A DNA stretch of 64,000 bases, taken from IMG/VR virus record IMGVR_UViG_2648501802_000002. The stretch is one strand, 5' to 3'. This DNA is from a virus (lineage: Duplodnaviria; Heunggongvirae; Uroviricota; Caudoviricetes). Both the position numbers and the translations under genes were made by a program. Below the pieces are notes generated by a model. That model made no database searches. It saw only the letters and a program-made list of their open reading frames with translations, and was not told the DNA's origin. Shown here piece after piece: positions 36,050 to 64,000 of the stretch (positions are counted from its first letter, which is position 1; each line of letters opens with the position of its first letter).

Positions 36050-36739
36050 TCATAAATCTGATAGCCACTTACTATCTATGGACTCAATCTCCGTCAGCGG
36101 AATTGATGGGAAAAAATATCCCTGAGCGCCCCATAGCCCTATTCCTTTTGATAACTTATGACAATCAATGTTTTCGACGCCTTCAGCGATGATATTCGGA
36201 CATAACTTTTTTAAATTGCTAATAATGACATCAAAATGAGGCTTAATCATATGCTCTTGAAAAAATGACTTATCAAGTTTTATTGCATGGTATTTATTTT
36301 TAATTAATGCTTTCATGGTGGCGTTACCACTTCCAAAATCATCAAGCCAAACATAGTCTGTCAAAGTCAGGAGAAAGGGTATAACGTAATCCTCATCGCT
36401 TAAATCAGGGTAGTTTTCTGATATCTCAAGAACTATAAATTTATTGTTTTTAATTAACTCTTGAGTTTGTTTATTACTGTATATATATATACATGTATCA
36501 TAATCTACATTAATAGAACATAGTATATTATGGCGTTCAAAAAAACACTTGTATTTCATTATTGTGTTAAGTTGTGATTTAAGTAAATTAATCTTCATCT
36601 TATTGGTAAACATACCCAATACTCTTTGAGTAGGAAGAGCGACACCATCTTTGGAGCGAAATCTGCTTAACACTTCTACTGCAATCAACTTGTTCGTGCT
36701 CGTAGAAATGATTGGTTCTGCAATGTAGATAACTTCCAT
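36050..36739 (-). CDS. EAL-domain protein (c-di-GMP phosphodiesterase-like)
   Basis: 229-aa ORF with EVLSRF, DDFGSG, KLDKSF and AQGYFF motifs; AT-rich. Confidence 0.6.
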   Translation of the reverse strand: MEVIYIAEPIISTSTNKLIAVEVLSRFRSKDGVALPTQRVLGMFTNKMKINLLKSQLNTIMKYKCFFERHNILCSINVDYDTCIYIYSNKQTQELIKNNKFIVLEISENYPDLSDEDYVIPFLLTLTDYVWLDDFGSGNATMKALIKNKYHAIKLDKSFFQEHMIKPHFDVIISNLKKLCPNIIAEGVENIDCHKLSKGIGLWGAQGYFFPSIPLTEIESIDSKWLSDL

Positions 36740-36975
36740 ATCCCCACCCTCAAGTTTTAAATTGCTTGATTTTGCTCAGATAACGAGCCCCCTATATTTA
36801 CAAGAGTTACACTCTACTTTTGTAGATTAAATGTCAATTTATTTGTTTGTGATAATATTGAAAAATATCAATTAAAACAATCAAAAAATGTGACATAAAT
36901 CAATAATTTTATTTTTACACAACTTCTTGATTTCTGAGCCTAGCTATCTCTATTCTTATTCAAAGCCTCTTTAGA

Positions 36976-54242: not shown

Positions 54243-56158
54243 GCCGCTACCCCCGCTTTCTGGATTGCTACCAGCAGATCAGCCAGGTGGCGAGCTGCGC
54301 CGTTAACCAGCTCTTCGTTTTCCTCAAAACGTCCGGCAGCCTGAAGGGCTGCAATCGCTTCCCGGACATTGCCCCGGGCGTTACGGATCTCCGCCATGTC
54401 AGTGCTTTGTATATCCATCACGTTATTGAGATATTCAATGGCTTTATTAGCCTCTGCATCTGCTTCGCTAACCGTTTCATCAGGCTGTGCCGGGGCCGGT
54501 TCTGGCTGAGTAATCTCACCGACTTCGGCCTGCAATGCATTGATCATGCTCTGCACCATTTTCTCGGTGCCAGCGCCCCCAGGAAACGCAATATTGGGGA
54601 AAGTTTTTTGAAACTGAGTTTTCAGCATTACGCGGAACTCGTCTGGTGAGCTGGTGGCCAGCTCCAGAGCTTTTTGTGCATATTTGCCAAACGGACCATT
54701 AGTAAGTGTCTTCGCCAGGAAGTCGAAAGAATCCTCGCGAGGCAATAACTTCAGGTCGTACTCACTCATTTGCTGATCAGAAAGCGGGGTATCGTAAGTA
54801 GCAATGCCGTAGCGTGCATATTCATAATACGGGTCACCTTCATCAGGGCGCGGCAGAATTGCTTTGTTACCTTCAGGTATTGCGCCAGGGGCCGCCGGAC
54901 GCATTTGCAGGGCATATCGATATGCACCTACAGAGACTTCTGGTTCAGGCGAAGAGCTACCGGTATCCTCCGCTGGTTCAGGCTCGACGTTTTCCGGTTT
55001 ATGTTCTTCTGGTTGGACCAGGTATTCCGATACATTACCCGCTTTATAGGCTTTAAACAGCTTGCCGATCGCATCTGCCATGTCCACACCCTGTATGGAT
55101 TTAGCCTTGATCATGTATACGCTGCCATCCGGATCGGTTAACTGGATATACCCTTCGCCGCCCCCAATGAATTGCTTCATTGATGCACCATTACTGAGCG
55201 TCACTTCCCCGTCCATATGCATACGATTTTTGATACTGGCAAGGCGATCCGTCAGCGCGCGAGAGTGCCCACCAGTCATCCCCGCTGGAGCAATGGTATC
55301 GCGCCCACCAGTGCGATTGAGCTGATCAATCTCCGTCTGCAAACGCTCATTCTCTTCATAAAGAGAATCCGCTTCCGATGCAACAGCGTTAATTTTCTGC
55401 TCCAGATCTGCCTTCTGCCCTTCTACCGCTGCCACCTGATCCGCGAGGTCGCTCATGGCATCCTCTTTCTGGTCACTGTCAGCCTGTAGTTGGGTTATTT
55501 CATCAACAAGGGCTTTTTTCTTCTTCTGCGCACGCTGGAATTTTGCCGAGTTTTTCTCTGCAAGGTTGGCAAGTTTCATGGTGACCTGCGCCAGCGTCAT
55601 ATCACGTCCACTCATCGGAGCAACGGTGTGAGTAACGTCTTTTTTATTCAGTAAGAACTGGAAAGCAACCAGCGTATCGCTATTGGTGATCCGGTTTTCC
55701 GCTGTCGGGCTATGAAACAGAATGCTGATAGTCTGACCATCACTGAGCGGAATAATGGCTGGCAGGACTGGCAGCCCGTTAACGTTACGTGCCCGGCCAA
55801 TTTCAGCGCCGCCGATCGCGCGCGCGCCGCTCTGGGCCACATCCCCCGTTTTATCACTCCCCGCAGAGATTCCGGTACCATTCAGCTTCTGGTTCAATGC
55901 CCGGACAAATGCCTGCATGGTCCGGTGTAACTGCAAACGAGTAGAACTAATCGCCTCCAATAAATCCGTAGCACACCAGTGGATCGGCGTGTCATAGAAG
56001 AACGTTGCCTCGATTTCCTCCAGGGTGTTGGATTCCGTCATCAGATAGCGGTCCTGACCAGCCATTAATGCGCGATATTCATCATCAGTCACCGGCGGGG
56101 GAAGCACGTCAAGCCCCGGCTTAATCGTCACCCCTTTATTGATATTGAACTGTTCCAT
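54239..56158 (-). CDS. DarA-like antirestriction capsid protein
   Basis: 639-aa ORF in the conserved operon position. Confidence 0.5.
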   Translation of the reverse strand: MEQFNINKGVTIKPGLDVLPPPVTDDEYRALMAGQDRYLMTESNTLEEIEATFFYDTPIHWCATDLLEAISSTRLQLHRTMQAFVRALNQKLNGTGISAGSDKTGDVAQSGARAIGGAEIGRARNVNGLPVLPAIIPLSDGQTISILFHSPTAENRITNSDTLVAFQFLLNKKDVTHTVAPMSGRDMTLAQVTMKLANLAEKNSAKFQRAQKKKKALVDEITQLQADSDQKEDAMSDLADQVAAVEGQKADLEQKINAVASEADSLYEENERLQTEIDQLNRTGGRDTIAPAGMTGGHSRALTDRLASIKNRMHMDGEVTLSNGASMKQFIGGGEGYIQLTDPDGSVYMIKAKSIQGVDMADAIGKLFKAYKAGNVSEYLVQPEEHKPENVEPEPAEDTGSSSPEPEVSVGAYRYALQMRPAAPGAIPEGNKAILPRPDEGDPYYEYARYGIATYDTPLSDQQMSEYDLKLLPREDSFDFLAKTLTNGPFGKYAQKALELATSSPDEFRVMLKTQFQKTFPNIAFPGGAGTEKMVQSMINALQAEVGEITQPEPAPAQPDETVSEADAEANKAIEYLNNVMDIQSTDMAEIRNARGNVREAIAALQAAGRFEENEELVNGAARHLADLLVAIQKAGVAA

Positions 56159-56159
56159 G

Positions 56160-56771
56160 TTAATTTCCTGCTTTCAGTTGCTTAAGACGGCGTTTGAGTT
56201 CGCCATTCCGTGCCTTTTCGTTATTGAGTCGGCCCGTCTCCTTATCCAACTTCGCCCGCAAATCTGTGATCTGCTGTTGATTGAAAGACACCGAATTCTG
56301 CGCGGACTTATAAGCGGCAACCACCTGAGCATTCCGCTGTTTTGCTTCTTGCAGGCGCTGAAAGTTGGATTTAACTGCCGGTTTCTTGTCTACCGGATTG
56401 GCAACACGCTTCGCTTTGGCGATCAGTGATTTCTGGAATTTCGCAGAGTTTTTGCGGGCCGCTTGCCCCATGACGGTACCAAGCGTCTTGATATCTGGCG
56501 ACTGTGCGTTAGGAATAGATTTTCCATTCAGTTTCACAGCCGATATATCACCAGTATCGTTTACCTGTATGGCAAGAATTTGTCCGTCGTTAAGAACCAG
56601 TTTTGCGGTTTTAACTTTAACGCCATCTTTCGTTGTTGCGCGGTTGCTGGAGTCAACCTCAATTACCGTAACACCGGTTTTATTGATCGCCGCGATAAGG
56701 GATTTCAGCCCCTTTTCATTAACCTGGTCAAAATCGACCGTTGCATACTTATTTTTCGTCATCTGACACAT
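56160..56771 (-). CDS. Hdf-like protein
   Basis: 203-aa ORF immediately upstream of the DarA-like gene. Confidence 0.45.
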   Translation of the reverse strand: MCQMTKNKYATVDFDQVNEKGLKSLIAAINKTGVTVIEVDSSNRATTKDGVKVKTAKLVLNDGQILAIQVNDTGDISAVKLNGKSIPNAQSPDIKTLGTVMGQAARKNSAKFQKSLIAKAKRVANPVDKKPAVKSNFQRLQEAKQRNAQVVAAYKSAQNSVSFNQQQITDLRAKLDKETGRLNNEKARNGELKRRLKQLKAGN

Positions 56772-57192
56772 CCTGTGCGAGATTTATTACGTAACTTCTG
56801 CGGATTTGCTGAGTAACAGGGAAAATCCGATACAACGGGTTAATGAACGAGTCGCCATGCGTAACCATGACGTTGAAATGCCACAGTCGCTCTCCTTTAC
56901 CCATATATTCAGTGGGTATGTACAACCATTCACTGTTTTCGCCCTGTTCAGCCGACGTCAGACAACGTTGTTCGCCTTCAATCACTGTCGTCGGCTTCTG
57001 AACATCGCGGATCCAATATCTGACCGTTGCGCCGCGCAAAAACGGGAATTTAGACCGGTATTTGAACGGCACCCGAATGAAACCCGGTTTAATTTCCACA
57101 TCACCAAGTTCTAAATGCGTGATGTCCTTGCGTTTTAGCAAATAGCGATCGGCTAAGGCTAACGCAAGAACGCATACACCCCAGCCAATCAT
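56749..57192 (-). CDS. LydB-like antiholin
   Basis: 147-aa ORF downstream of the holin gene with overlap. Confidence 0.45.
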   Translation of the reverse strand: MIGWGVCVLALALADRYLLKRKDITHLELGDVEIKPGFIRVPFKYRSKFPFLRGATVRYWIRDVQKPTTVIEGEQRCLTSAEQGENSEWLYIPTEYMGKGERLWHFNVMVTHGDSFINPLYRIFPVTQQIRRSYVINLAQDVSDDEK

Positions 57193-57518
57193 TTCCCACC
57201 TCCCTTTTTCACCAAACTTGTAAGAACATTCAGAATGCTATCGATATTCACTCGTTTCATCCCTGAAATCACCTCATGACCGTTATTGCTGGCTATCGTT
57301 ACCATTAAGTACGTAATTGATAACTCCCAGCCTTCGTGTTGCCCCAATAGGTACGCCACCGCGCCAGCTGTCACTGCAACAAAGATCTCCGTAACCAATC
57401 CCAACAAGTTGCCAGACTGGCGACCATCTCGGACATCCATCAGGAACGTGCCTATCCCACCAATTACTGAAAGCAGGAGCGCAATAGCAACTGGAGCTAA
57501 TTCCTGTGTGTCAAGCAC
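57189..57518 (-). CDS. holin (LydA-like)
   Basis: 109-aa ORF with hydrophobic segments; first gene of the leftward lysis/dar operon. Confidence 0.55.
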   Translation of the reverse strand: MLDTQELAPVAIALLLSVIGGIGTFLMDVRDGRQSGNLLGLVTEIFVAVTAGAVAYLLGQHEGWELSITYLMVTIASNNGHEVISGMKRVNIDSILNVLTSLVKKGGGK

Positions 57519-57586
57519 AAGTTCCCTCCTACGTTGTCAGGAGGTAATGGTATGCAAAGTAACTTCTCAACCGGTCATGTTACTTG

Positions 57587-57620
57587 ACATCCTCCACGTC
57601 CTTTAGAGCGTGGAGGATGT
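57587..57620. other. perfect 12-bp stem-loop immediately 5' of the intron-like sequence
   Basis: ACATCCTCCACG (57587-57598), 10-nt loop, CGTGGAGGATGT (57609-57620). Confidence 0.8.
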
Positions 57621-58455
57621 GTGCGCCCAGCATGGGCGCGATCTTGGAGGTGAAAGCCCTCCCGCGAGCTGACCACAGCGAGCGAAAGGAAGTGCAACTG
57701 CGTGAGGGCGGCTAGGCGTGGGGAGGAAGCACGGAATGAACCCGTGAGCCGATGAACAAGAATCGGATATGAGGCGCGATGGAGCAAGGCGAGCAGGCAC
57801 ATCACTGCGAAGCTTTCGTGACAAAGTCGCGTAGATCCGACGGTTGTGCGGGGAAGGATCGCGTTCTTACCTGGGGAGTTCTCGCCTCATGCCTGAAAGG
57901 GCAACGTCGTAAGACGGAGCGAGAAGTCAGCAGAGGCCGTAGTAGTCAGGACTCCGACGAAGGGCCGAACGAGAAGGAAAGCCAAAAGATATGACTCTTG
58001 ACAGGACATTGCGTCAGAAGCCGGGGAAGCCCGGTACGGACCCGCATGCCGGGTGGTGTGGCAGGGGCGCAGCCTTGTGCTCCCCCCTATGCCGATCAAG
58101 CAGAACATTGTGCTGGGCCTCTGACGCATCTCCTTGATGGTCTTGGCATCGTGCTTAAGTGGATTGGTGTCGTCTCTGATAGGCTCATGGAGGCAGAATG
58201 AAACTCAAAAATCCGGGACAGCACGCAAAACAGGCTGCACAAAAAGCGCAGGTTGCGTAGGAGTGGAATCCCGCTCCCAAAAAATGGTGCAGAAGTTGCG
58301 GCAGTGGTCATCCGACGCACTGGAAAATAACAAACCCGCCGTGACCAGAATCGGAGGCCTGAGGGAGTGACCGTAAAACCGGATAACCCAGGCAGCAAAT
58401 ACCCGCTGGATGAGGCATGGTTCCGGCAGATAATACCGAAAACCGCCAGACACAC
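57621..58455 (+). ncRNA. group II intron 5' segment, ORF-less or 3'-truncated
   Basis: Begins GTGCGCCCAG (GUGYG 5' consensus); GC-rich with no long ORF; ends at an abrupt drop to AT-rich sequence; no domain V identified. Confidence 0.55.
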
Positions 58456-58516
58456 TGGATAATCAGTAGAAATAACCCATTAAAATCATTATAATAATTG
58501 GGCACATTATTATATT

Positions 58517-59080
58517 ATGCTGAATAATAGAGACATGAATATTAATGAACTTAAAGACTGTATTCACTATGAAGTAATCGGTAGCGAGCGTCCTTTCTCC
58601 TGGCGAAAGGCAATTGTTCGCGCAATAAAACATAGAAGAGTTCGTTATTTATTTTGGTGGCGCATAGCCAAATACCTTTTTGATAAAGGCGGATACTGTC
58701 GGAAGATTGCGGGGAAAATGGAACGTTTCATTCTTGATAAATATAGTGTAACAGTCCCTTTAACTGTAAATATAGGGAAAGGCTTTGATATTTCTTATCT
58801 CAACGGTGTTGTTATCGGTCACAAAGTAACCATTGGTGAAAATTGTTCAATAAAACCAGGGGTAACTATTGGGCTACGTGGTGATTTTAATGATATGGAT
58901 ATTGTTATAGGACATAATGTGACCATTGGTTGTAATGCCACCATTCTTGGTGGCAAAGTGCGTATAGGAAACAATGTCACAATAGGTGCTCATGCATTGG
59001 TATTGCATGATATTCCTGATGATTCAACATTCATCACTAAATTTCAGTCTGAAGTTATCTGCTCGTCCTCTTGCACATAA
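58517..59080 (+). CDS. hexapeptide-repeat (left-handed beta-helix) acetyltransferase
   Basis: 187-aa ORF with repeats [14 protein letters not shown] / [15 protein letters not shown] / [15 protein letters not shown]; AT-rich; 3' end overlaps the convergent U gene. Confidence 0.65.
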
Positions 59081-59661
59081 CCCTGATTCATCAGCTCTGG
59101 CCATACGATATCCGGAGCTGTACTGGTGTCAATTCGACTCACTAATACTCTGTATTTTCTCCAGGAATCCAGTTGTGAATTTTCCTCGGTTGTTGCTATT
59201 TCAAGATTAACTGCATCCTGCAGAATTGCGATGTTATCTGTTGCCTCCTGAATCAACCTTGCCTTTTTCTCTTCCGCTTCCCGTATCCGAAACAGTTTTT
59301 CTGCTTCCTCATCCTTCACCCAGGATACGCCGTCCCACTTCTGATACTCCCCTGCTGGCGACAACCAGGTGACATTCTCTGGTAACGGTCCGAGTTCAGA
59401 AATAAACAACGCGTCCCCCGATGCCACGTCATAGACCGTTTTACCACGATGGTCTTCAACAATAATCCATGATTCATTTTCACTGTTAAAAACTGCCACA
59501 AAGCCAGCAGGAATTTCCGGTGGGGCGATATCTGTAGAATTAGCTGGTAGCCCTGTATGAGGTGGAATATATGCGTCACCTTCACCAATAAACTCATTAG
59601 TTCCGGCGAGCAGGTTATAAATTTTTACAGTACGTGATTGTTCACTCATTCTGAATGCCAT
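59044..59661 (-). CDS. tail fibre assembly protein (U/Tfa-like)
   Basis: 205-aa ORF directly downstream of the receptor-binding fibre gene with ATGA overlap. Confidence 0.6.
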
Positions 59662-60552
59662 TATGCAAGCCTCACAATATAATTAAATGCGATGTTTTTA
59701 ACGGTGTTTTCCGAGTTACCAGCAGCGTTAACGGTGATGGTGTGTCCATGTGAACCAATCGCAACAGAGTGCGTATGAGCGCCAATATCAACTGTATGTG
59801 CATGCGCCCCTGCACTTGCAGCGGTGCCTGATACTGAGTGGGTGTGTGCACCAGAAGAAGGCACAGTTCCATTCCCCACCACAGTGCCGCTTGATGAGCC
59901 ATCAAGCCAGTCGAAATTCATACCGCCACCATCTGGTCTCCTTAATGGAACGGTATGAGTATGTGCGCCAGCACTATTTGCAGTACCAGATACATTGTGG
60001 GTATGTGCACCTGTGTTATTCGTTGATTTAGTACCGTAATCAAACGAAGATGTGGTTTTCGTACCCAAATCCGTATTGGATGCGCTGGCGCTGTGGGTGT
60101 GCGATTTAATGCCATCCTGTTCCAGAGACAATACGTCCCGACCACTGGCGGGTTTGCCCTTGATTGTCCAGCCACGCATATCCGGGATCACGCCTGACGG
60201 ATAAGCGGCTGCAAGTTTCGGGTATGCAGATTTGTCAAAAGTCTGTCCCTGCATCAGGGCGTAACCAGACGGCACAGTATCTGATGGCCACGGATGCGGA
60301 ACACCAACAGGAAGGACCTCAATATCCCCGGAACCATCAAACGAAACGTTATTAATTTTACGGGCTGTTTTCAGCTTTGTAGCCGTTGAGGCATTGCCGG
60401 ACAGCTCACCAGAAATGCCACCAACAACTGTTAGATCACCAGTTATTGTGCCGCCTGAACTTTCCAGTTTTTTAGCAACATCACTCTTAATAGAGTCGAT
60501 TTCTTTTTTTCAGATTAGTTATATCTGCTGGTATCGTTGTCACTGTTGCCAT
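59661..60552 (-). pseudogene. receptor-binding tail fibre gene with frameshift at an A7 tract
   Basis: AAGGA RBS + ATG at 60552 gives [16 protein letters not shown] then stop; removing one A from the run at 60504-60510 by hand gives a continuous frame of about 297 aa into ORF 59661..60275 (GAHTH repeats). Confidence 0.55.
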
Positions 60553-60725
60553 ATTAATTCCTTACGCCCATTCCCGCAGCGGTTGTTCTAATTGAACTTC
60601 AAAACCATCAAACATTTGTTGTTTCAAACTGTTGTTTAAAATACGAACATTAACGAAGAAGCCATCATTTTTAATCACTGTTGGTTCTTCGTTCTCGCCG
60701 TTTGGTATTTCGGTATATGTAACAC

Positions 60726-62153
60726 CTACAACATCAAGAAGAATGTTGTTTTGCAGCTCTTCATTATCGTGGTGCCGAGTTCTCTTAAACCAAGGTATTG
60801 GATAACAGCAAGGACGCTTGTTTTGGACAGAATATCGCGACCGACTGACGTTAAGTCAGTCTGAGAAACAGTGTCTGTACCGGTAAAGTACGGCAGTTTA
60901 TTTGCGCCTGTAGCAAGACCAGCAAGCGCGGTTAAAGTTGCATCCAGAGGCTGTTTGCCTGCCAGCGCATTTGTCATTGTTGTCGCAAAGTTCGGGTCAT
61001 TACCAAGTGCTGCGGCAAGCTCATTCAGGGTATCAAGAGCTTCTGGTGATGAACCAACCAATGCGGATATGGCAGCTCTTACATAAGCAGTCGTAGCAAT
61101 CTGCGTATTATTTGTGCCCTGCGCAGCCGTAGGCGCAGTAGGGACTCCCGTTAATGCAGGGCTTGCCAAAGGCGCTTTGAGGGCTAGGGCATTGTTGATA
61201 GTTGTGCTGAAATTCGGGTCGTTATTGATCGCAGCAGCTATTTCTTTAAGCGTATCCAGTGTGCCAGGTGCACCGTTGATAAGTGCCGTTATAGCTGACT
61301 TAACAAAGGCTGTATTTGCGATCTGCGTGCTATTTGTACCTTGCGCTGCCGTCGGCGCGGTTGGCGTTCCTGTCAGACTCGGGCTTTCTATTGGCGCTTT
61401 GGTATCAGCAAGACCTTTTACAGACTTAACGGCTTTAGGGGTAGCCGCCATTGTTTCGCTGTCGCTGTTAGTTTCGCTACTGAGCTGAACTAATCCCTTT
61501 TGCGTTGTGCTTGCATCCTGTGCCGTATACTTGCTTTTCGCCAGATCGTAGGCTTTTTTAGCTGCCAGCGAACTTGCAGCAACATCACTTCTGCTACTGG
61601 TTACAGAGTCTGAAATATCAATGCCGATCGTGCGGTTAATACGCTCGGATGTATCAATCATCTCCTGGGTAATGGCTGATACGCCAGCAGGGATATTCAC
61701 CGTACAAACAAGCAGCTCTCCATCTCCTAACTGATATGAATCGGTATAGGTTCTGGCAACAAATTCAGCCGCATGAATATGTGACGCGGTATTAACCTGA
61801 TAGGTATCCTCTCCAAGGAGGTATCTTCCCTTCAGCACAATTGCATATTTCTTGCCTTCACTAAGTGCAAGAGAAATATCCTTACGGTGCCGAATAGTTA
61901 CCTGGTAGAATTCACCAATATCCACTGACGCAGCGCCAGCAGTTTTATCACCATCCACTGAGGTGATTAACAGGTTCATACCACCGCCAGGCTTCGGCAG
62001 GAAACCGGCATAAAACCCAGGATCAACAATTCCCCTGAATTTTCGGTTTAGCGCGGCTGACAGATATGGTTCGTGGTATTGCACATCAGCCACCAGAGCC
62101 AGTGACTCGGGCGATGGGTAAGTAACTGATGTAACAACTGTAACGTCATTCAT
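60726..62153 (-). CDS. tail fibre protein, constant N-terminal part
   Basis: Start at MNDVTVV (62153, AAGGA RBS); Ala/Thr-rich repeats; ends 16 codons after the cix-like site with ...VIQYLGLRELG. Confidence 0.55.
   Translation of the reverse strand: MNDVTVVTSVTYPSPESLALVADVQYHEPYLSAALNRKFRGIVDPGFYAGFLPKPGGGMNLLITSVDGDKTAGAASVDIGEFYQVTIRHRKDISLALSEGKKYAIVLKGRYLLGEDTYQVNTASHIHAAEFVARTYTDSYQLGDGELLVCTVNIPAGVSAITQEMIDTSERINRTIGIDISDSVTSSRSDVAASSLAAKKAYDLAKSKYTAQDASTTQKGLVQLSSETNSDSETMAATPKAVKSVKGLADTKAPIESPSLTGTPTAPTAAQGTNSTQIANTAFVKSAITALINGAPGTLDTLKEIAAAINNDPNFSTTINNALALKAPLASPALTGVPTAPTAAQGTNNTQIATTAYVRAAISALVGSSPEALDTLNELAAALGNDPNFATTMTNALAGKQPLDATLTALAGLATGANKLPYFTGTDTVSQTDLTSVGRDILSKTSVLAVIQYLGLRELGTTIMKSCKTTFFLML
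60780..60805 (-). other. cix/hix/gix-like recombination site
   Basis: TTCTCTTAAACCAAGGTATTGGATAA: 12-bp inverted half-sites around an AA core, close to hixL TTCTTGAAAACCAAGGTTTTTGATAA. Confidence 0.6.
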
Positions 62154-62164
62154 CAAGCATATCC

Positions 62165-62599
62165 TTATGCTATAGTCGTGTTGATGGCCATAACTGCGGT
62201 ATATGTTTTTCCCACATACAGCGAGTCTTCCTGAACACAAATAATTGCGATGGGCTTATTCTCGTTATCCAGAACAACCAGAGTGTTGAATGGATAGTTT
62301 TTCCCTTCCTGCAACTGGCTTTGATCAAGGTCCATTCGGACAGTAATTATCCCGCCAGAGTAGGTTGGGACGAGGTTGATGGTGCAAAATTGACTGGTCA
62401 GTTCTGCCAACTCGAAAGTCTTTGGCAGTTCTCCAATGTCATAAGTACCATCTTCATTTTTGGTAACCAGCGAACTGGTGCCGAAAACGGCCTTGCTGAT
62501 TAAAAATCGAGAGCCTTTGTTAATGGACGATTCAGCGCGTCGCTGATAGTAATAATCCAACAACTGACTCTTATAGAGATTTGTTGAGACGTCAGACAT
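62165..62599 (-). CDS. tail fibre/baseplate-associated protein (R position)
   Basis: 144-aa ORF immediately upstream of the tail fibre gene. Confidence 0.4.
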   Translation of the reverse strand: MSDVSTNLYKSQLLDYYYQRRAESSINKGSRFLISKAVFGTSSLVTKNEDGTYDIGELPKTFELAELTSQFCTINLVPTYSGGIITVRMDLDQSQLQEGKNYPFNTLVVLDNENKPIAIICVQEDSLYVGKTYTAVMAINTTIA

Positions 62600-62677
62600 G
62601 ATTTTCCCTAATCAATGTTGTGAAGCCTCATTGTAAGAGAAGTAACTTGTCACCCCGCCCTGCGGACGGGGTAATTG

Positions 62678-63517
62678 TCAGGCATCGCTATCCAGCAGCA
62701 AATCATCTGCGCGGGAGCGATCAAACGTAGGCGTTGCTTTCACAATAGTGCCGCCCGGCGTTGCAGTGATCGGGGCACTAATCGACGTAACTCCGGCAAG
62801 CGAAGTTGTATCCGAAGTTTCAAACCAGCAGTACGCTTTTTCGGTATCAGAAATCTCGTTCAAAGTGATCATGTCGGCCTGTTCATTTACAACAACCGAC
62901 AAATAGAGCGTAAGCCCATCAAACACTATATGCAGTGGCAGTAGAGGCTTTACGAACTGATTAAACTTTCTGAGAATTTCTTCTGTAATTGCGGACTGAT
63001 CTATCGTGCCAGTAATACCCATTGTCCTGGCCAGGTCGTTTATGGGAATACTGATCATCCCTCTGGAAGTCAGAAACATCTCGCCGAATGTGCCGCCAGT
63101 AGTCTCCAGTGTGCTTTCTGGTATTAGAACTGTGCCATAGGGATGACGCTCAAGGTCCACCGGTGCATATATCGGATCCCATAAAACAGAAATACCGTTA
63201 AATTCGCGGTAAATTGTCTGGTTTATAGGACGTTCAGTTCCCTTAAAGTGGATCTCATCAAGCCGCTGTTGTAACAACATCGGAACGGAAGATGAGTTCG
63301 AGGTTCTGATAGTAAAGAACTGGCCAAGTTCATTTGTCCTGGTCTCCAGATCCTCCTTGCTCATGGAGAAAATAGACTTCCGGTTGGTAATTCGCTCCAA
63401 CCATGGGTCAACAAAGGTGTCCATCATTGACTGAACCAAATCAGCCAATGATTTATAGAGCAATGACTTTTGCTTAGCTGATGTAAGCCGGTTATTAAAC
63501 CAGGAACGCTGCATCAC
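62678..63517 (-). CDS. baseplate protein (gene 16 position)
   Basis: 279-aa ORF in the same block. Confidence 0.35.
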   Translation of the reverse strand: MMQRSWFNNRLTSAKQKSLLYKSLADLVQSMMDTFVDPWLERITNRKSIFSMSKEDLETRTNELGQFFTIRTSNSSSVPMLLQQRLDEIHFKGTERPINQTIYREFNGISVLWDPIYAPVDLERHPYGTVLIPESTLETTGGTFGEMFLTSRGMISIPINDLARTMGITGTIDQSAITEEILRKFNQFVKPLLPLHIVFDGLTLYLSVVVNEQADMITLNEISDTEKAYCWFETSDTTSLAGVTSISAPITATPGGTIVKATPTFDRSRADDLLLDSDA

Positions 63518-64000
63518 TCCTCCTCATACGAAATATTAAAGGTGGAGCTTTCTGTATCCAGATAAACGAAATCGTAAAAGCCGTTGGACTCATTCCACTC
63601 GACAAATTCCAGATAAAAGTCGCGGAAATAACCCAGCGTTTCGATAAACGCCCAAACGTCTTTTTTCTTAATCAGGATGTACTTTCCGACGCGGTTCGGA
63701 TCAAAGAAAGTTGAGTCGCGCCCAAATTTTGTTTCCAGTGCCGACTTCAGCTCATCGGTCACATTCTCAATGGTCAGGCTTGCCGATATCCGTCCGGTGA
63801 TGGTTATCTTAAATGGTAGTTTTCTGACCTCTTTATAAGAGAATTTCTTGTTCAGTTCATTCGGTACCTTCTTAAAGGCAGTCAGGATCATTTCTTCAAG
63901 CTCTGACTGGCTTTTATTTGGATGCCATCCTGAAATAAATATCTTATTGATATTCTGAACATTATAAGCACCATCTAATTTCTCTTGCTGGCCTTCGCCC
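63514..64000 (-). CDS. baseplate-like protein, 5' end outside window
   Basis: Reading frame of ORF 63514..63891 stays open upstream to the window edge. Confidence 0.35.
   Translation of the reverse strand, partial: GEGQQEKLDGAYNVQNINKIFISGWHPNKSQSELEEMILTAFKKVPNELNKKFSYKEVRKLPFKITITGRISASLTIENVTDELKSALETKFGRDSTFFDPNRVGKYILIKKKDVWAFIETLGYFRDFYLEFVEWNESNGFYDFVYLDTESSTFNISYEEE

Follow-up and report, generated by a model that had tools for sequence, protein, structure and literature searches.

A left-handed beta-helix gene with replaced active-site residues in a tail-fibre cassette of a P1-like element

A gene for a left-handed beta-helix protein, here called LbH, was found beside tfa and a tail fibre tip gene in a 64,000-nucleotide stretch of DNA from a virus of the Caudoviricetes (IMG/VR record IMGVR_UViG_2648501802_000002), which we refer to as the window. 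The sequence of the LbH gene itself is not new and has already been annotated in many P1-like plasmids and E. coli genomes. What appears to be new here is that LbH, tfa and the fibre tip form a cassette, that the tail-to-tail association of LbH genes with tfa is broad, and that the catalytic residues of the protein have been lost under purifying selection.

The gene was contained in an open reading frame of 187 amino acids on the plus strand, from 58517 to 59080, which encodes a hexapeptide-repeat protein. The ATG at 58535 is the likelier start (181 amino acids), being the start assigned by PGAP in pSCEC128, and the N-termini of the relatives align to Met7. The original prediction had the gene begin at 58456, which is not a codon boundary in the LbH frame and instead marks the start of an AT-rich leader, with a GC content of 0.23 from 58456 to 58516. 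The gene had also been described as AT-rich, and the measured GC content of the open reading frame agreed with this, at 0.374 (GC3 0.30) versus 0.479 for the window, which placed it among the lowest 2.8% of 564-nt windows. The part of the window with the lowest GC content was located elsewhere, at about 36300 to 36900 (GC about 0.29 to 0.30), and is presumably other foreign cargo.

The isolated and convergent placement that had been proposed for the gene was borne out, in that lydB, lydA, tfa, the fibre tip gene and S were all located on the minus strand, leaving LbH as the sole coding gene on the plus strand among them. The predicted 37-nt overlap of its 3' end with a gene of the U type was exact to the nucleotide (Table 1). 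The overlap exists because the Tfa protein is here 13 amino acids longer at its C-terminus (205 amino acids) than the Tfa proteins of JL22 and phiNP (192 amino acids). A promoter scan identified a sigma-70-like sequence, TAGAAA-17-TATAAT, at 58467 to 58495 upstream of LbH, with matches at 10 of 12 positions, and a scan for terminators on the plus strand found none for LbH, which ends inside tfa. The gene probably has a sigma-70-type promoter of its own and would run against the late fibre operon, so that the protein would probably be made in the lysogen and reduced under late read-through.

Table 1. Features at and around the LbH gene, numbered from the first nucleotide of the window.
Feature	Position	Strand	Basis
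Group II intron remnant, 475 nt, 5' GTGCG, domains 1-4	57621..58095	+	Rfam RF02001 95.5 bits, RF01998 46.8 bits
Non-coding filler, 350 nt	58096..58446	.	Also in intron-less plasmid; part about 80% similar to tape-measure genes
Cassette left end and AT-rich leader	58447..58534	+	Common homology boundary, promoter scan, GC
LbH CDS, putative SAT/WcaB-fold left-handed beta-helix protein	58535..59080 (alternative start 58517)	+	ORF, profile matches, alignments, dN/dS, model fold
Thr codon replacing Asp	58751-58753	+	Alignment
Tyr codon replacing catalytic His	58796-58798	+	Alignment
Pro codon replacing Gln	58856-58858	+	Alignment
Overlap of the convergent LbH and tfa 3' ends, 37 nt	59044..59080	.	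ORF coordinates
tfa, lambda Tfa / P2 G / P1 U family, 205 aa	59044..59661	-	Pfam Caudo_TAP 2.3e-39; 78% to JL22 Tfa
Distal fibre gene, T4 gp37 / lambda Stf-like tip family	59661..60551	-	Profile matches, comparison with U2501
Constant part of P1 gene S, cut to 504 aa	60726..62240	-	Reading frame runs on for 18 codons past the cix-like site
Only cix-like site in the window (TTATCCAATACCTTGGTTTAAGAGAA)	60780..60805	-	Site scan; P1 M81956 annotates cixR under the matching stretch

The LbH protein matched the Pfam Hexapep family (PF00132) with an E-value of 6.6e-13 and a score of 48.2 bits versus a cut-off of 27. When all NCBIfam models were scored, none of the cut-offs was reached. The best model was EpsC (85.5 bits; cut-off 150), WcaB was the third best (59.4 bits; cut-off 194.65), and the CysE models TIGR01172 and NF008349 gave 74.2 bits (cut-off 210.65) and 46.1 bits (cut-off 397), respectively. 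In the PDB, the sequence matches were to serine acetyltransferases (SATs), in their C-terminal beta-helix, with E-values of about 1e-12. The AlphaFold model had a pLDDT of 74.7, with good values for the N-terminal helices and weak ones for the first coils of the beta-helix, where residues 91 to 130 reached only about 50. In a Foldseek search with this model, the top matches were all SATs, with a probability of 1.0 and TM values of 0.6 to 0.7. The predicted fold is that of a SAT in which the N-terminal domain is shorter, as in WcaB, and the product would be a cytoplasmic and presumably trimeric protein. The assignment to a subfamily by structure prediction thus gave a SAT fold from a moderate model, whereas the cut-offs of the CysE, EpsC and WcaB models were all missed. 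The notion of a left-handed beta-helix acetyltransferase holds for the hexapeptide repeats and for the SAT-like fold; it does not hold for the active site, where the catalytic His, Asp and Gln have been replaced.

To describe the active site, we aligned the LbH protein with CysE and WcaB from MG1655 and with 24 to 57 homologues. LbH shares with CysE a set of alpha-helices followed by the left-handed beta-helix, the motif IG(K/R)G and, about 30 residues downstream of it, an extended loop. It differs from CysE in that the N-terminal part comprises about 75 residues instead of about 140, and in that the C-terminus (...SSSCT) lacks the Ile tail by which CysE binds CysK. The region of CysE Asp92 was absent, Asp157 was replaced by Ser, and Arg192 and His193 were not conserved in the loop, which reads GDFNDMD in LbH versus KSGGDRH in CysE. 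Proteins of the WcaB/EpsC type are of the same size class (160 to 190 amino acids) and have the same domain layout, and WcaB could be aligned over the beta-helix. They differ in genomic setting, since LbH is located outside of any polysaccharide cluster, among genes for phage lysis and fibres.

The window protein and its relatives of at least 52% identity, including the homologue in the Hafnia phage yong2, are here referred to as the Tyr clade (n = 7). In CysE, His158 serves as the general base and Asp143 as its partner (PMC9547175). At the position of His158, all 51 sampled relatives outside the Tyr clade contained His, whereas all 7 members of the clade contained Tyr. The position of Asp143 was occupied by Asp or Glu in 39 of the 51 relatives outside the clade and by Thr, Lys or Val inside it. 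The third position, Gln178, was Gln in 38 of the 51, and Pro in 6 of the 7 clade members, with Gln retained in one. No other His was invariant within the Tyr clade. WcaB and the distant relatives have kept His and Asp/Glu at the positions of His158 and Asp143, so that WcaB contains Glu and His where the window protein contains Thr and Tyr. The same division was seen in IMG/VR, where Thr/Tyr/Pro was present in all 41 close relatives with coverage of the site, and Asp/Glu-His-Gln in all 36 distant relatives, two of them with His in place of Gln. It has been stated in a structural paper on the transferase NeuO from 2011 that all crystallised beta-helix transferases share the catalytic His (PMC3046976), which makes its replacement in the Tyr clade unusual.

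The dN/dS values were 0.09 for the window gene compared with the homologue in phage vB_EcoM-613R2, 0.05 for yong2 compared with the homologue P0014, and 0.12 for the window gene compared with yong2, a comparison in which dS was saturated. These values, from 0.05 to 0.12, indicate that the Tyr clade is under purifying selection. Furthermore, Tyr has been kept across a dS of more than 2, although the change from His to Tyr requires only a single transition. The ease of the change together with the long retention points to selection for Tyr.

The reading that we favour, tentatively and at somewhat less than even chances, is that LbH is an acyl-CoA-dependent modifier of an envelope sugar or of a lipid-linked precursor, such as those of the LPS core, the O antigen, the enterobacterial common antigen (ECA) or colanic acid. 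A modification of this kind would change the surface of the lysogen and limit the adsorption of related phages. In colanic acid synthesis, WcaB and WcaF acetylate Und-PP-linked units, to judge by the general picture of this pathway and by the product names of WcaA and WcaE in MG1655, which mention acetylated Und-PP acceptors. If LbH is still an enzyme, Tyr might act as the base, or an amine acceptor might make a base unnecessary; if not, the protein would function by binding only. We agree with the original prediction that the sequence does not reveal the substrate. Its suggestion of a surface-modification function is plausible but is weakened by the loss of the His, Asp and Gln residues, and by the finding, described below, that LbH does not track the similarity of the fibre tips.

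A phage-encoded beta-helix enzyme is known from prophage CUS-3, in which the O-acetyltransferase NeuO changes the K1 capsule receptor and has been proposed to mediate superinfection exclusion (PMC13001214). Both NeuO and LbH are beta-helix transferase genes of temperate phages located outside of the polysaccharide cluster of the host, and LbH is in addition located near receptor-binding genes. NeuO differs in that it belongs to another beta-helix subfamily, contains a catalytic His/Trp pair and has phase-variable heptad repeats. No tandem repeats were found when such repeats were sought in the LbH gene, and NeuO was absent among the PDB sequence matches listed for the protein.

We consider it rather doubtful, yet next in line after the envelope modifier, that the Tyr clade is non-catalytic and has been kept for the binding of acetyl-CoA or CoA, a sugar nucleotide, a beta-helix transferase of the host or some other partner. 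The replacement of all three active-site positions in the absence of another invariant His would fit such a role, as would the strong purifying selection and the retention of Tyr. The Tyr could nevertheless serve as a base, and some sugar N-acetyltransferases, such as QdtC, work without one. Non-catalytic beta-helix proteins do exist, as exemplified by eIF2B and dynactin p25/p27, but we know of none in phages.

The genomic positions of the relatives were informative about the link to the fibre. Genes that converge on tfa with a gap of 15 to 43 nt were identified in yong2 (54% identity to LbH), in the Citrobacter phage phiNP, where the gene is ORF4 (39%), and in the P1-like JL22 (sacF) and Ro157c2YLVW (37% each), and identities among such convergent relatives ranged from 36% to 54% across several phage types. 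JL22 sacF, Ro157c2YLVW gp23 and phiNP ORF4 belong to the same family as LbH (36% to 40% identity), converge on tfa and adjoin a fibre tip of the T4/lambda type, and differ in having kept the Asp/Glu-His-Gln positions. The presence of the LbH homologue was noted in the paper on JL22, with the reason for its presence stated as unknown (PMC9603915), and ORF4 was listed as a 'fitness' cargo gene in the paper on the phiNP prophage (PMC6456863). The phiNP fibre, ORF6, binds GlcII of the LPS core (PMC9659904), and its tip was 66% identical to the fibre tip in the window.

We further surveyed a sample of 80 loci from IMG/VR, comprising 44 close and 36 distant relatives. A convergent Tfa-like gene was located within 100 nt in 43 of the close and 15 of the distant relatives, and several further relatives directly faced a fibre or baseplate gene. 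Other relatives were located after the integrase gene in ESSI2 phages, at a prophage end beside mntR, and, in IMG/VR, beside genes for a T6SS. A check of the context of the homologues P0014, P0009, P0022 and P0015, which included non-phage islands, identified no phage fibre genes near them. The association with tfa thus holds for many members of the family but not for all.

Two further settings were noted. An Enterobacteriaceae chromosome (CP138199.1; L008:6001-7697) contained three tandem hexapeptide-repeat genes in a non-phage region, the first of which encoded a protein with 52% identity to LbH. In virulent phages of S. thermophilus, phage 9874 and its relatives (L024:6010-6489), a gene for a SAT-like protein of 31% identity was located after the tail and receptor-binding genes and before the holin gene, and the association with the host-recognition module may extend to phages of Gram-positive bacteria.

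The idea that each LbH protein is paired with a fibre tip in a receptor-specific manner found no support, since there was no co-variation between the two. The LbH protein of yong2 is 54% identical to that in the window, yet the adjoining fibre tip is unrelated. Conversely, the fibre tip and Tfa of JL22 are 69% and 78% identical to those in the window, but the LbH protein is only 37% identical. This lack of coupling argues against a scheme of one modifier for one receptor. The link to the fibre appears to be one of position and not of alleles, which fits with a general function connected to host recognition or with residence in a hotspot.

Such a hotspot is known from P2, in which the Z/fun site between the tail genes carries defence systems, fibre swaps and invertases (bioRxiv 10.1101/2024.10.15.618418). 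In P2-like elements, the LbH gene was located between the block for the tail tube and tape-measure proteins and the fibre block. Since this position corresponds to the Z/fun hotspot, the location alone may reflect a permissive insertion site. It is conceivable, if unlikely, that LbH is an intracellular gene for anti-phage defence, superinfection exclusion or counter-defence that became a neighbour of tfa through such a cargo hotspot and is functionally independent of the fibre. The richness of the hotspot in defence systems would be in keeping with this, as would the uncoupling of LbH type from fibre type and the presence of relatives at other prophage cargo sites. However, no defence model in PADLOC matched the protein, a search against PHROGs placed it only in phrog_2154, a family with no named function, and we know of no beta-helix transferase that acts as a defence effector.

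A more ambitious combination of these elements, which we regard as speculative and quite unlikely, is that the proteins with a SAT fold that converge on tfa in P1-like, P2-like, phiNP-like and other phages constitute an accessory family dedicated to the host-recognition module. In the clade of E. coli and Hafnia, the loss of Asp, His and Gln would have turned this family into a factor that is non-catalytic or novel in its chemistry, perhaps one that masks or edits the LPS receptor or blocks related phages by a mechanism undescribed for beta-helix proteins.

With regard to its wider surroundings, the region from 55000 to 63900 matched phages and phage-plasmids of the P1 family at 95% to 98% identity, and the P1-matched genes included darA, hdf, lydB, lydA, S, R, gene 16 and bplA. 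The homology to P1 was interrupted from about 57580, after lydA, to the cix site in S at about 60770, and the intervening 3.2 kb stand in the place of lydC-cin-Sv'-U'-U-Sv in P1. Searches of the window by tblastn with the Cin and U' proteins of JL22 identified neither gene, lydC was not found either, and the match to Sv' was limited to 60315 to 60461. No second, inverted cix site was identified anywhere in the 64 kb. The original prediction had assigned LbH to the place that the alternative fibre genes occupy in an invertible segment; with no cin, Sv' or U' gene and a single cix-like site, there is no invertible segment here. A 16-nt inverted repeat with 88% complementarity was noted at 58446 to 58461 and 61253 to 61268. 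Its left arm (CCAGACACACTGGATA) is located exactly at the left boundary of the cassette and includes the sequence TGGATAA, which resembles a cix/gix half-site; the repeat may be due to chance.

Comparison with other P1-like loci placed LbH in the arm that contains tfa and the fibre tip. The comparison did not bear out a replacement of fibre genes by LbH, because the 37%-identical homologue in JL22 was located between U' and tfa, within the segment that cin inverts, and cin and both sets of fibre genes were present. LbH is therefore no substitute for the alternative fibre genes. Separately, it was noted that a P1-like viral contig (L074:3531-4549) contained a cut-down cin gene of 79 amino acids followed by a 42%-identical LbH allele of the His type, which shows that the inversion system has decayed repeatedly around this family.

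The cassette, in the order fibre tip, tfa and LbH, extended from 58447 to about 60313 to 60423 and was found elsewhere at 93% to 95% identity. The carriers were phage vB_EcoM-613R2, a P2-like chromosomal prophage (CP024138) and the 47-kb phage-plasmid p142_C, and the left boundary was at 58447 in all three. In many P1-like plasmids the gene order was the same as in the window, with the holin gene followed by the intron remnant, LbH, tfa and the fibre gene, and LbH was absent from P1 and P7. Among 5,426 complete E. coli genomes, the LbH gene was identified in 182, with 156 chromosomal and 58 plasmid copies, and LbH together with tfa as one piece in 207. It was thus present in about 3% to 4% of the complete genomes, nearly always joined to the type of tfa seen here. 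The 5' half of tfa was common to 2,809 of the 5,426 genomes, and the 3' half went with LbH. In the sister P1-like plasmids NZ_CP033848.1 (L023:6581-7483) and CP056621.1, the same cassette contained a macro-domain gene between the fibre gene and tfa.

These patterns suggest that LbH is a moron, a self-contained piece of cargo at the far end of the tail-fibre cassette. Of the traits of morons, a deviant composition and presence or absence among related phages were observed. As in the cargo genes and morons at the Z/fun site of P2, LbH is located between tail blocks next to a fibre assembly gene, has a deviant GC content and a promoter-like site, and is patchily distributed; it differs from morons in that no terminator was found and that the gene ends within tfa. 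Recombination would have brought the cassette from a P2-like phage to a P1-like phage-plasmid, in which it would have taken the place of lydC, cin and the invertible C segment. The earlier suggestion that the gene is acquired cargo is well supported by its foreign composition, its promoter-like site, its absence from P1 and the occurrence of the same cassette in P2-like phages.

Upstream of the cassette, a remnant of a group II intron was located directly after a perfect 12-bp hairpin (57590 to 57616) and ATGT, a placement adjoining a hairpin that is typical of introns that target terminators. Domains D5 and D6 were not detected in the remnant, even at E = 10 in a search of 600 nt, and no convincing fold was obtained for 57960 to 58100 (z = 0.03). 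Plasmid NZ_CP033848.1 (L023) contained the empty site, in which 57620 was joined directly to 58096. Since both junctions are precise in spite of the lack of D5 and D6, one possibility is an internal deletion that spared the last few bases. An intact group II intron with LbH as its cargo was rejected as an explanation, given the lack of D5 and D6 and the location of the cassette boundary at 58447, 350 nt past the remnant.

S and the distal fibre gene were not intact in the window. In the distal fibre gene, the open reading frame from 59661 to 60275 was intact, and the 5' part, which starts with the ATG at 60551, was out of frame. The frameshift was caused by a run of seven A residues at 60504 to 60510 on the minus strand, where plasmid U2501 has six, which could represent a sequencing error, a pseudogene or a slippage-prone phase variation. 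The sequence past the cix-like site corresponds to the C-terminal two-thirds of a 92-amino acid open reading frame that is intact in U2501, here in another frame, and no PLSDB record shared both junctions. Unless the A-run is an error of sequencing, the element may thus have a defective fibre apparatus. Inside tfa, at 59120 to 59318 on the minus strand, Rfam also gave a match to IS009 below the threshold (79 bits versus a gathering threshold of 117), most likely because tfa is homologous to the prophage segment that served to define this candidate sRNA.

The truncation of S and the frameshift in the distal fibre gene would be compatible with LbH being a passive hitch-hiker in this plasmid, carried along through the overlap with tfa and perhaps irrelevant in the company of damaged fibre genes; the 37-nt overlap forces its co-transfer with tfa. 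We find this improbable to a high degree, because the LbH open reading frame is intact, the protein is identical to the copy in pSCEC128, and the low dN/dS values across the Tyr clade indicate that the gene itself is being preserved.

That LbH is a true serine O-acetyltransferase (EC 2.3.1.30), a CysE paralogue that boosts cysteine synthesis, can practically be dismissed: it is favoured by the names in the databases and by the PDB, where SATs are the best matches in both sequence and fold, and is contradicted by the scores far below the CysE cut-offs and by the want of His158, Asp143, the substrate pocket and the Ile tail. The protein is no equivalent of CysE, and nothing identified it as a housekeeping paralogue with a defined substrate.

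The LbH gene is recorded in databases as "serine acetyltransferase", "transferase" or "LbetaH domain-containing protein". The first of these names, which is attached to the gene in hundreds of phage-plasmids and prophages of E. coli, is wrong for this protein, judging from the residues and scores described above. As a common passenger of host-range cassettes, the gene would spread whenever fibre tips are swapped. If LbH changes the surface of the cell or excludes related phages, as in the envelope-modifier reading that we favour, this would bear on phage therapy, on transduction and on the ecology of P1-like plasmids that carry resistance genes. Furthermore, the clean switch from His to Tyr under purifying selection would provide a simple test case for a beta-helix transferase without the histidine.
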